DNA of 12,909 nucleotides from Candidatus Heimdallarchaeota archaeon. Its GTDB lineage: Archaea > Asgardarchaeota > Heimdallarchaeia > Heimdallarchaeales > Kariarchaeaceae. How positions within the stretch are numbered: position 1 is the stretch's first letter; every line of letters starts with the position of its first letter. This document shows, piece after piece, positions 387-3,095 of this stretch. The DNA lies in NCBI GenBank assembly GCA_015523565.1, contig WAKA01000135.1, positions 1 through 12,909 of the forward strand, read 5' to 3'. A program made the translations under genes and the position numbers. Under the pieces are notes generated by a model, which ran no database searches, had not been told where the DNA came from, and worked only from the letters and a program-made list of their open reading frames with translations.

Positions 387-2375
387 ATGATAGGAAAGAC
401 ATTTTCAAAAGTACTGTCATCAATTTTGATTTTCCTGATGATCATTTCAGGATTTTCCAATATCCCGATTCAAAACAGTTTTCCAACCCAAAATGCCCTA
501 GCCAATCCACAACGGATTGATTTGGGAAACGGAACTTGGGTTGAGATAACTGTCAACGGAAATATCACCACATTGATGTTTTCTGACACTTCAATGATTA
601 TTGTCAACGCTTCCAGTGATGTGACAACAATTGAATTCTATGAGAGTATTGAGTCAATTAACTTCACAAGACTCTCCATCATTGCCAATGAATCCTTTTC
701 TTCTACAGTCTATCCATTTGACAACGTTCAAATACCAACAACAACAGGTTTTAAGATAGATCTTGTTCAAAGGTTGACAAGTGAAATAATTTTGGGGAGT
801 TGGGAATTTCTATCCTATTCTTCCTTTGACAGTTCCCATTTCAGTATGTTTGAAATGCAATCTCAACAAATGATCAATTCAACAGCAAACAGGATGTTCA
901 ATGCCATTATTGCTGCAAATCAAACAAAATTTGGTGCTTCTTTTACATCATACGTTTCATCAACAGGAGATATGGTTTCGCTTGATTTAAATGGTGATAC
1001 CTCATCTCCTGCAAATTCCACTTTCCTGTTGAGAAATGAGGGTGGCGGATACAGCGCAAATTATTCAATAGACTCAGGTCAAGACCCTCAAAATAGTGTT
1101 GATTCATTTTTCGATGTTTTTGCATCTTATATGGATCAAACAGGAAATGGAAACCAATATGAAATGTCAGGAAAGATTTTGGATTTCCTGTCTTCCTTTG
1201 ATTTCAGAAATGTTACTTCTGGTTTTCAAGACAGTTTGCTTTTGGAACAGGGAATGCCACCTCAAACAGTTCGTTATCCTTCAAACGGTGCAGTGGACAA
1301 TCCAAATGATCCTTTTGACATCATAGACGTCATTATAATGTCTGAAATGATTACTTTTGTATTCGGGGGCTTGTCTGTTGTACTCTTCCCAGATAAGCTT
1401 GTGGTAGATTATTATACATTCGATGGACTTTATGTACCCATTGTTGTGTTCTTTGAAACGTTGGAGATCCATGTCATCATTATGGAAATAACAATCATTG
1501 TTTATATGCAATCCATAGAACTCCTCATGGTAATTATAATCCAAGAAATCATCAAAATTGAGGTATACATTCAATATATTGTCTTGGTTGTTGAAATTCT
1601 TGAGATAACTATAATAGAGATAACATTGACATTCATTGACATTGATATAACAATAATTGAAATTTCAATAACTGTCAACATCTGGATTTTCAAGATAATC
1701 ATAAAAGTTGTCAAGAAAGTCATTATCTTCCTTCCTTTCTGGATACTCATTATTCCAATATTCATTCCTGTACCTGTTCCATTCTTTGTCCCTGTGCCCA
1801 CACCAGTGCCTGTCCCAGTACCCCAAACAATTGTCAATCTCTACAACCAAACCCTTGATGAAAGAAATGATGTGATGAACTTGACTTATTATGTTTCAGA
1901 TGAGTACGGCAATCCGATTTCTGGTGCAAATCTGACATTGACAATGAATACTAGACCTGGAATAATATATAATGGAAGTGAAATCATTAGAAAACCTGGG
2001 TACTATGAATTCACTAATTTACCATTGGATTTGAATGTTGAAATTACTGTTACAGCGGACACGAATTCATATCGGCCCTTGGGATTCATTACGCATGTCA
2101 TAACAATAAATGATGTGACAGATACTGTAATTGTTCCTTCAAATGTTACAGTCACAAATACTGCAACTTATGTCCAATATTCAAATGTAACAACTACAGT
2201 ACCTAATGGCACAATTACTCAAACAATCGTGCAGAATAATACAGTCACTAGTACGGTCAATAATAATTCAACAGCTAGCACCACTCCAATAAACTTGCCA
2301 TTAATGATAATTACGACTATCGCTCTTTCCCAATTAATGGTAATCATACGAAAAAGACGGAAACAGAAAATTTGA
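387..2375 (+). CDS. Secreted, C-terminally membrane-anchored surface glycoprotein with an Ile/Val-rich tract, (PV)n repeat, Ig-like domain and Thr/Val/Asn-rich linker; function unknown
   Basis: 662-aa ORF. It has an N-terminal signal (MIGKTFSKVLSSILIFLMIISG) and a beta-rich N-region. The Ile-rich tract is at 1440-1766 and the PV repeat at 1755-1823. An Ig/Big-like segment follows (LTYYVSDEYGNPISGANLTLT...PGYYEFT). There are many N-x-S/T sequons and a C-terminal TM + RKRRKQK. Confidence 0.85.
   Translation: MIGKTFSKVLSSILIFLMIISGFSNIPIQNSFPTQNALANPQRIDLGNGTWVEITVNGNITTLMFSDTSMIIVNASSDVTTIEFYESIESINFTRLSIIANESFSSTVYPFDNVQIPTTTGFKIDLVQRLTSEIILGSWEFLSYSSFDSSHFSMFEMQSQQMINSTANRMFNAIIAANQTKFGASFTSYVSSTGDMVSLDLNGDTSSPANSTFLLRNEGGGYSANYSIDSGQDPQNSVDSFFDVFASYMDQTGNGNQYEMSGKILDFLSSFDFRNVTSGFQDSLLLEQGMPPQTVRYPSNGAVDNPNDPFDIIDVIIMSEMITFVFGGLSVVLFPDKLVVDYYTFDGLYVPIVVFFETLEIHVIIMEITIIVYMQSIELLMVIIIQEIIKIEVYIQYIVLVVEILEITIIEITLTFIDIDITIIEISITVNIWIFKIIIKVVKKVIIFLPFWILIIPIFIPVPVPFFVPVPTPVPVPVPQTIVNLYNQTLDERNDVMNLTYYVSDEYGNPISGANLTLTMNTRPGIIYNGSEIIRKPGYYEFTNLPLDLNVEITVTADTNSYRPLGFITHVITINDVTDTVIVPSNVTVTNTATYVQYSNVTTTVPNGTITQTIVQNNTVTSTVNNNSTASTTPINLPLMIITTIALSQLMVIIRKRRKQKI
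1755..1823 (+). repeat. Protein-level Pro-Val dipeptide repeat (PIFIPVPVPFFVPVPTPVPVPVP)
   Basis: Degenerate CCNGTN hexamers with varied third positions. Confidence 0.85.
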
Positions 2376-2727
2376 TGGATATGATTCTTCTCAATTAAAA
2401 AACATGTTTCTTGTTTATATTCTGTGATTTCTATTTTTACATTATTGCTAGACAACCAATCACCATTTTTCTAATTTTTGCGTCATAATCAAAATTTATT
2501 TCACAAATGAATGATCCTTTCAATAAAATATGTCGCATACTACATTTGCATACATAACTAGTTCAATAATTGCCATTTTTCCATATTGGAAACAATTACT
2601 TGAAAGAACTGGGTGACTTGAGACAAGACAAAAGTTGGACAAAAATGTTATTCGTAGTTGCTGACTCTTATAAGGTTTGATAGAAAATATAGAAAAAGAC
2701 AATGCTATTCTTTTTAATTAATTATGA

Positions 2728-2970
2728 ATGAGATTGGATAATATGGATGACTCCCCACCAACCAATATGATTGACACAAACAAAGGAGGTCTGGTTGCTT
2801 TAGGATTTTTTTTAATTGCCCTTGTTCATTTATTTTTCTTTAATACTGGATATCCAATCCCATTTTTCTGGATTACCTCCTTTGAAACGTTTATTGTTAG
2901 TGCTGTCGTGTTTTTGGTCATTTTCACATTGATCTATTTCAAACTGATTATCCCATTTATCCGTAGTTGA
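2728..2970 (+). CDS. Small two-TM membrane protein, hypothetical (start could be 2728, 2743 or 2767)
   Basis: 80-aa ORF with two Phe/Leu/Ile-rich hydrophobic segments separated by NTGYPIPFFW. It is co-oriented with its neighbours. Confidence 0.65.
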   Translation: MRLDNMDDSPPTNMIDTNKGGLVALGFFLIALVHLFFFNTGYPIPFFWITSFETFIVSAVVFLVIFTLIYFKLIIPFIRS

Positions 2971-3059
2971 AAGATGTAATTTGTTTAATTTTCTCATATC
3001 TGACAAGATCAATATGTGCTTTGTGTCACCAAACTACTTTGATGGGCACAATTGTTCCT

Positions 3060-3075
3060 TAAACACTTATTTAAT
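3060..3075 (+). promoter_or_regulatory. Candidate BRE/TATA promoter for the 3096-10888 operon
   Basis: AAACAC-TTATTTAA, with the TATA-like element 22-29 nt upstream of ATG 3096 and no SD. This fits a leaderless first gene. Confidence 0.35.
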
Positions 3076-3095
3076 TCAAATAAATAAGAAATACA

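Follow-up and report, generated by a model that had tools for sequence, protein, structure and literature searches.

An isoleucine-rich, glycine-free tract in a surface protein of Heimdall-group archaea is predicted to form a beta ribbon rather than ordinary transmembrane helices

What can a protein do with 109 consecutive residues of which 40 are isoleucine and none is glycine or alanine? The question is raised by a gene of Candidatus Heimdallarchaeota archaeon (NCBI GenBank assembly GCA_015523565.1, contig WAKA01000135.1), which lies on a contig that we analysed over its whole length of 12,909 bp, referred to here as the window. The contig is part of a metagenome-assembled genome of 3.57 Mb, roughly 90% complete, from a hydrothermal vent. 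The cell surface of Heimdall-group Asgard archaea is very poorly known, and the 662-residue protein encoded here appears to belong to that surface. As judged from the sequences of its relatives and from predicted models, the isoleucine-rich tract behaves as beta structure and not as ordinary transmembrane helices. We tentatively favor, at somewhat less than an even chance, an explanation in which the tract is the core of an extracellular module of about 165 residues (aa 313-477) whose isoleucine faces self-associate into a rigid oligomeric shaft.

Translation of positions 1440-1766 of the forward strand yields residues 352-460 of the protein, which comprise 40 Ile, 13 Val, 10 Glu, 8 Leu, 7 Phe, 7 Thr and 5 Lys and contain no Gly, Ala, Arg or Cys, reproducing exactly the counts given for the tract in the initial annotation. 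The isoleucine codons are mixed (ATT 17, ATA 14, ATC 9), and Tandem Repeats Finder detected only a trivial array of 20-23 nt at 1623-1645, which bears out the earlier statement that the DNA is not a tandem repeat. When the 2725 open reading frames (ORFs) of 150 aa or longer that the 3.57-Mb genome contains were ranked by isoleucine content, the tract was the richest 109-residue window of all; the next two contained 30 and 27 Ile, the mode was 12-13, and the runners-up were ordinary polytopic membrane proteins or spurious frames. The part from aa 352 to 444 consists of 62% I/V/L/F/M with no Gly, and no Pro occurs before residue 450.

This composition is shared by a small family. A word-indexed search found five full-length relatives with 34-47% identity, and an exhaustive profile search covering 1.84 billion representatives returned 28 matches at E <1e-3, of which about 19 bear the tract while the remainder match only an Ig-like domain. 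All relatives that could be placed taxonomically are Heimdall-group. Across the 19 members the tract is about 90 residues long, with Ile at 22-43% and I/V/L/F/M at 55-67%; Gly is absent from it in 17 members, Ala in 16 and Cys in 18, and Gly and Ala each occur at most once. The tract is present in every otherwise full-length homologue.

To which structural class the tract belongs is indicated first by its periodicity. The family-averaged hydrophobicity spectrum is dominated by a peak at a period of 2.3 residues (power 76.9), with the other listed peaks at 22 or less and none at 3.6. Beta power exceeded alpha power in all 19 members and the beta shuffle z-score was the higher in 18, with alpha-band z-scores between -1.4 and +1.3 throughout. 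The alternation can be followed residue by residue across aa 417-437, where positions 417, 419, 421, 424, 426, 428, 430, 432, 434 and 437 are Ile or Val in every close homologue. Ten of the 11 positions on this hydrophobic face exchange Ile and Val only, the residues between them are D, T, E, S, N, W, F or K, and the other face varies within polar classes.

Conventional transmembrane helices find little support in the tract, in agreement with the earlier view that the composition does not suit them. Besides the missing 3.6-residue period, D, E, K, R, Q, N or H interrupts aa 352-444 so often that no run between them exceeds 7 residues, and each 19-residue window includes 1-5 charges; an uncharged run of at least about 18 residues is found only in aa 445-477, a segment that is 21% Pro family-wide. 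The C-terminal anchors of 17 members served as an internal control for composition. The anchors contain 14% Ile, 16% Val, 17% Leu, 8% Ala, 3% Gly, 10% Ser and 0% charged residues, whereas the tract contains 33% Ile, 15% Val, 7% Leu, 0% Ala, 0% Gly and 14% charged residues (E 9, D 2, K 3). The beta-branched share of the aliphatic residues rises from 0.43 in the anchors to 0.77 in the tract.

The tract had also been described as a series of quasi-pentad units. Four I[ILM]EI[TS] motifs do exist, but profile autocorrelation gave a z of only 0.9 at lag 5, compared with 2.7 at lag 7, 2.0 at lag 9 and -0.8 at lag 8, and detected no true internal repeat in the tract. A pentapeptide-repeat beta-helix (Rfr fold, A(D/N)LXX) was rejected on the same lag-5 value, together with the lack of any Pfam pentapeptide match even at E up to 1.

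Structure prediction with AlphaFold2 (AF2) placed the tract in beta structure as well. The full-length model, made with the 19-sequence alignment (mean predicted local distance difference test score, pLDDT, 68.9), is all beta from aa 42 to about 450, with helices only at aa 2-21 and 637-661. In a model of the fragment aa 296-482, pLDDT was 85-95 for aa 315-400, where the chain is predicted to form an antiparallel single-layer ribbon of short strands, a cross-beta-like meander in which no transmembrane helix was predicted. Its strands span residues 313-317, 322-326, 329-333, 337-343, 349-355, 360-365, 368-373, 379-385, 389-394 and 398-402, and are followed beyond aa 402 by longer, low-confidence strands. 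Long beta-strands had been anticipated for this region, but those of the confident part are 5-7 residues in length. The first turns of the ribbon are canonical (GG at 327-328, PD at 335-336, DG at 346-347), and the turns inside the tract are based on Glu and Gln. The compositional bias therefore coincides with 1440-1766 as originally delimited, but the structural unit is larger, since the strand array begins at aa 313 (nt 1323) and the hydrophobic, Pro-rich part extends to aa 477 (nt 1817).

Comparison of the predicted ribbon with known structures, by a method other than Foldseek, gave the following matches (Z-score and root-mean-square deviation, rmsd, over the number of residues stated):

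CPAP TCP/G-box, 4bxp_A: Z 10.8, 2.1 Å over 109
SAS-4 TCP, 4by2_A: Z 9.7, 2.6 Å over 122
phiKZ central spike, 6orj_A: Z 9.5, 3.6 Å over 83, all within the confidently modeled portion
OspA, 6kk9: Z 8.7, 3.7 Å over 102
Lower rows: LptC, Z 7.3, 3.3 Å over 85; TamAB, Z 7.0; LptD, Z 6.1

Foldseek searches of PDB and BFVD with the fragment model returned nothing at E <=0.001, the top rows being single-layer sheets (MORN, TCP, OspA), and with the full model only non-specific all-beta rows were obtained from PDB (TM-score ~0.1). A profile search of PDB sequences found no relative, and a protein atlas search gave no usable match.

The module is embedded in what reads, from its sequence, as a signal-peptide-bearing, sequon-rich, C-terminally anchored surface protein. 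All parts lie on the forward strand:

387-2375, forward: whole gene, a 662-aa open frame encoding a surface protein of an unannotated family of Heimdall-group genomes
387-449, forward: predicted signal peptide or hydrophobic helix, aa 1-21; a basic start followed by a hydrophobic run, with an AF2 helix at aa 2-21
504-1286, forward: predicted N-terminal all-beta ectodomain, aa 40-300; 10 N-x-S/T sequons, AF2 pLDDT 72-89
1323-1439, forward: start of the predicted short-strand beta ribbon, aa 313-351; turns GG, PD and DG, conserved DKLV(I/V)xY motif, fragment pLDDT 92-95
1440-1718, forward: Ile/Val-rich, Gly/Ala-free acidic tract proper, aa 352-444; defined by composition, conservation and beta periodicity
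1692-1718, forward: basic cluster KIIIKVVKK, aa 436-444, which closes the acidic tract in the sequence
1719-1817, forward: uncharged hydrophobic Pro-rich segment, aa 445-477; motif LPxWIxIIPxFIPVxxPxFIPVPTPxP, AF2 pLDDT <50
1818-2114, forward: predicted Ig-like or macroglobulin-like beta-sandwich, aa 478-576; 4 sequons, AF2 pLDDT ~90
2115-2294, forward: Thr/Asn-rich stalk, aa 577-636; 6 sequons, pLDDT <50
2295-2372, forward: predicted C-terminal membrane anchor with basic tail RKRRKQKI, aa 637-662; AF2 helix at aa 637-661

The 662-aa protein matched no Pfam and no NCBIfam family. Its sequons are divided between the two sides of the tract, 10 ahead of it and 10 after it with none inside, and therefore both flanks are probably extracellular. 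The anchor and its Arg/Lys tail were found in 17 of the 19 members. Lys or Arg occurs at, or a few residues from, the point of the basic cluster in most members (QPVR in a subfamily of shorter proteins) and is weak or absent there in P0009-P0011. The Pro-rich segment, which ends in PVPTPVPVPVP in the 662-aa protein, is family-wide 28% Ile and about 2% charged (Lys, Arg). The Ig-like domain resembles complement C5 MG4 (Z 10.3, rmsd 2.6 Å) and has sub-threshold matches to CarboxypepD_reg, Big_1 and Invasin_D3 in 7-10 of the 19 members. The N-terminal ectodomain is modeled as a large up-and-down sheet with strands of 8-12 residues, for which structure comparison returned only loosely matched porin-like meanders (Z ~10, rmsd >11 Å). 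Taken together, the ectodomain and the tract match an axonemal central-apparatus chain, 9ijj_x (Z 13.2, 5.0 Å over 275 residues).

Conservation within this architecture is concentrated in the module. Two subfamilies can be distinguished, one of 640-690 aa and one of about 530-550 aa with a different, unalignable N-terminal region. Their common core starts with DK(L/V)V..Y and the tract; a basic residue comes next in most members, and then the Pro-rich segment, Ig-like domain, stalk, anchor and tail. One genome (G081) of the short-subfamily genus carries two family copies at separate loci (C61 and C14), the second with different neighbours. Pairwise identities were as follows:

N-terminal domain, the least conserved part: 31% among the close 4 genomes, 24% among all 9 genomes
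Tract: 58% among the close 4 genomes, 46% among all 9 genomes
Pro-rich segment, the best-conserved block: 66% among the close 4 genomes, 54% among all 9 genomes
Ig-like domain: 43% among the close 4 genomes, 38% among all 9 genomes

When one partner was shuffled within the tract, identity was 15% (maximum 30%), and therefore the biased composition does not account for the conservation of the tract. At the DNA level, 16 of 17 invariant-Ile columns contain more than one Ile codon among four genomes, and third-position identity, taken over identical residues, is 0.40 for the tract and for the N-terminal domain alike and 0.45 for the Ig-like domain. Since the Ile codons are mixed and third positions diverge as they do elsewhere in the gene, the constraint acts on the protein, as had been proposed from the codon mixture alone.

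Individual positions follow the same pattern. Y394 is the sole invariant position in the 19-member alignment and D336 is nearly invariant; E378 is invariant among the nine aligned genomic homologues. Polar positions keep their class. Six acidic positions of the tract are conserved, as are L379 and M381. The K390-I-E392 of the long subfamily (nt 1554-1562) is replaced by E-I-K in the short subfamily (P0015, P0016, P0018-P0021), in an alignment anchored by Y394, and this charge swap between 390 and 392 fits a same-face i/i+2 salt bridge in a beta-strand.

The family is narrowly distributed. Class-wide, among 83 species genomes, tract-bearing homologues occur in three of seven families and in 8 of the 11 genomes of one genus. 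None was found in the two largest families of the class (31 and 22 genomes); most of the genomes surveyed are incomplete, and absence is accordingly a soft result.

How might such a tract be accommodated outside a cell? In the explanation that we favor, the module would sit between the variable N-terminal ectodomain and the membrane-proximal Ig-like domain, stalk and anchor, and the tract would fold as a ribbon whose short strands lie crosswise to its long axis. Acidic and polar residues would lie mostly at the turns and on one face, leaving a near-unbroken Ile/Val ladder on the opposite face. Because a sheet that is 62% aliphatic cannot stay solvated, we infer that the Ile faces of several copies would pack face-to-face. 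Packing against protein is favored over packing against lipid because the hydrophobic face is near-invariant, with I/V exchange only, and because L379, M381, Y394 and the acidic positions are conserved as well. The conserved hydrophobic Pro-rich segment might run along the sheet as a strap, by analogy with a peptide of STIL on the G-box of CPAP. The resulting oligomeric shaft would be rigid and very stable and would, as a putative stalk, hold the variable head off the membrane.

Several observations weigh against this explanation. The oligomer of the surface protein is deduced from the sequence and a monomer model; a three-copy complex prediction for aa 300-480 scored 0.00 with an uncertain partner fold and carries no weight either way. 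From aa 404 to 476, which takes in the second half of the tract together with the Pro-rich segment, pLDDT is <50 in the full-length model, as it is for aa 411-466 in the fragment model, and the family alignment contains 19 sequences only. The proposed turns of the tract contain no Gly, Asn-Gly or Pro; several two-residue turns would hold Ile, which is unusual in tight hairpins, so the exact topology of the model may be wrong. The positive-inside rule would be satisfied by the conserved basic cluster and the uncharged segment behind it. Finally, by a crude hydrophobicity sum some 19-residue windows of the tract score 3.0-3.3, compared with 2.9 for the protein's own anchor, on a Hessa-type scale, which we did not use as evidence against membrane insertion. 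Since this sum cannot separate tract windows from the anchor, a naive predictor would probably call helices here, and the hydrophobicity of some windows may be compatible with membrane insertion during export.

The main rival, which we consider unlikely but far from negligible, is that the cell's own membrane takes up some or all of the tract, aa 405-465 in particular, which would hold the protein there as a second anchor. The tract could form a hairpin of two spans, or of four, whose basic cluster lies in the cytoplasm, or an amphipathic sheet in the outer leaflet with its Ile face in lipid; an even number of spans, or an in-plane sheet, would be compatible with sequons on both flanks. The hydrophobicity of the tract windows is comparable to that of the protein's own signal peptide and anchor, in most members Lys or Arg at or close to the cluster position is followed by 22-46 uncharged residues, and two members have charge-free runs of 65 and 91 residues. 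Trp and Tyr occur at the segment borders, where P0012 has WWPWWPWWWWP. In this distant homologue, the equivalent of 1719-1760 has LPxWIxII replaced by a Trp run, VPWWPWWPWWWWPVW, which recalls Trp-rich membrane-interface segments. However, the 19-residue windows of aa 352-444 are charged, the longest run there free of charged or strongly polar residues is 7 residues, six acidic positions are conserved, and the supposed last span has a Pro every 2-4 residues. The 3.6-residue periodicity is missing, and the composition, with Ala and Gly absent, is unlike that of the family's own anchors. AF2 predicts beta structure for the tract and helices for the true anchors in the same chain, and near-invariant Ile with I/V exchange only is atypical of lipid-facing positions.

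The membrane entered could also be a foreign one. Beta pore-forming toxins and fusion proteins insert hydrophobic segments into membranes, and the tract might be a latent inserter of this kind, borne away from the cell on a stalk, which oligomerises and then sends amphipathic beta hairpins into the membrane of a partner cell or vesicle. We regard this as decidedly improbable. The hydrophobic/polar alternation is clear in aa 417-437, the borders are Trp-rich, and, as seen from the C-terminal anchor, the tract is placed beyond the Ig-like domain and some 60 residues of stalk. Nevertheless, positions on the polar face are often hydrophobic themselves, the predicted strands of 5-7 residues are too short for a bilayer, structure searches found no pore-forming or fusogen fold in the flanking domains, and no conserved partner genes adjoin the gene.

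A further alternative, to which we give very little credence, is that the sheet forms a hydrophobic groove along which lipids or similarly greasy molecules would travel between membrane and exterior. The beta-jellyrolls of LptA/LptC and the beta-taco proteins TamB/AsmA carry lipids along such a groove, and an amphipathic sheet with one greasy face would suit this role, as would the lower-ranking structural matches to LptC, TamAB and LptD. These matches nevertheless rank under the single-layer sheets, in a range that the tool calls common, and neither a sequence relation nor a conserved transporter partner beside the gene was found.

One might still ask whether the tract has no function at all, having arisen through a faulty assembly or reading frame or as an inverted low-complexity linker, rich in N/D/Y, whose frame stays open by chance. 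This can hardly be credited. The antisense frame is nearly open (a single TGA) and N/D/Y-rich, but the tract keeps its frame and position at no fewer than 11 loci in 10 genome assemblies, as well as in 19 protein clusters. In a second sample of the vent study, a contig spans nt 1349-1712 with 3 substitutions and no indels, and the conservation of the tract is among the best of the protein. An antisense gene or inversion was rejected separately; the two minus-strand ORFs of 97 and 88 aa at 1281-1850, with one TGA between them, are the mirror of ATH (Ile) codons.

The surroundings of the gene add no constant partner. The other genes of the window encode two prenyltransferase-type toroid-domain proteins, a 7TM_transglut and ATP-grasp fusion, a transglutaminase-core protein and an ADP-ribosylglycohydrolase. 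Membership of the tract gene in this ATP-grasp/transglutaminase cluster found no support in synteny: in three relatives of the same taxonomic family none of the other window genes lies within about 10 kb of the homologue. At ten other loci the only shared neighbours are those conserved within one genus, and none is common across lineages. A spacer of 720 bp (2376-3095) parts the gene from the next long gene, at the toroid/ATP-grasp cluster, and holds an ORF of 80 aa (2728-2970) with a weak HAAS_TM match (E = 0.008). By eye, a TATA-like AT box precedes the ATG by about 35 nt and oligo-T runs follow the stop. We have treated the gene as stand-alone. A truncated ORF at the contig start (2-280) is conserved directly upstream of the homologue in a same-genus genome (L017:7119-7856, 35% identity). 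Its full-length copy has a sub-threshold match to HVO_A0261_N, and its product is possibly a small regulator that accompanies the gene in this genus.

The family is unannotated and rare, with about 19 clusters in the representatives searched, and the literature contained no description that we could find of it or of the sequence type of its tract. If the Ile faces do zip copies together, the module would be a natural, non-pathological cross-beta assembly of extreme stability and of interest for protein design; if it enters a membrane, an organism that has no outer membrane would possess an unusual non-helical membrane element. The boldest version, that it is an extracellular assembly element of a previously unknown kind, a hyper-hydrophobic Gly-free cross-beta ribbon with a hydrophobic-polyproline strap that zips surface proteins to each other or into the membrane of a neighbouring cell, seems to us rather improbable. 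Ribbons of short strands, single-layer or intertwined, are an already known fold; what appears to be new is an extracellular version that lacks Gly, is dominated by Ile and leads into a hydrophobic polyproline segment, and to our knowledge no other example of that combination has been described.

The best structural match to the model, the TCP/G-box of CPAP/SAS-4 (4bxp, 4by2), is a likeness of shape only. The G-box is a free-standing single-layer sheet of about 20 short antiparallel strands that recalls amyloid sheets; its turns are type I and often PDG, both of its faces are hydrated, it is a monomer, and one of its edges takes up a polyproline-II peptide of STIL (Cottee et al. 2013, PMC3776556). 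A free-standing short-strand meander of the same kind is seen here in the predicted model, for which pLDDT is below 50 past aa 411, and a conserved Pro-rich segment directly follows the ribbon where the G-box binds a Pro-rich peptide. In contrast to the polar, monomeric and cytoplasmic G-box, the Heimdall tract is dominated by I/V/L/F/M and predicted to be extracellular, and PDG-type turns are missing from a tract that has no Gly, the GG, PD and DG turns being confined to aa 327-347. TCP10_C (PF07202) had no match in the 662-aa protein, and in one of the 19 members gave E = 0.2 (11.8 bits, cut-off 36) at residues 62-79 of the N-terminal domain.

OspA and the self-assembly mimics engineered from it (6kk9, 3ec5, 2ol6) hold a single-layer antiparallel sheet between two globular domains, as the ribbon would be held here. 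The OspA sheet is short, charged and soluble, unlike the tract, and its Foldseek E of >=0.1 is non-significant. The triple-stranded beta-helix spikes of phiKZ (6orj) and phi92 (gp138, 3pqi) build an Ile/Val interior from the short strands of three intertwined chains, an oligomeric solution like the one proposed here; the Gly-containing octad repeat of such spikes, with its period of 8, is missing from the tract. For comparison with functional amyloids (curli CsgA, archaeal sheath protein MspA), a search of solved chains gave no sequence match, and no true internal repeat was detected in the tract.

A parallel in overall logic is offered by SlaB, the membrane-anchored stalk subunit of the Sulfolobus S-layer (8qox): it carries a signal peptide and beta-sandwich domains, oligomerises through a shaft and is anchored at its C terminus. 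Near the family loci compared, no conserved SlaA-like partner gene was seen. The Ig-like domain of the Heimdall protein matches a SlaB domain with Z 8.8 and 2.6 Å over 95 residues. The SlaB shaft is a trimeric alpha-helical coiled coil, whereas in the Heimdall protein the candidate shaft, an Ile-rich beta ribbon, lies on the distal side of the Ig-like domain. If its Ile faces join copies as we propose, the ribbon would match, in beta-sheet form, the coiled-coil stalks that archaeal S-layer anchors have.

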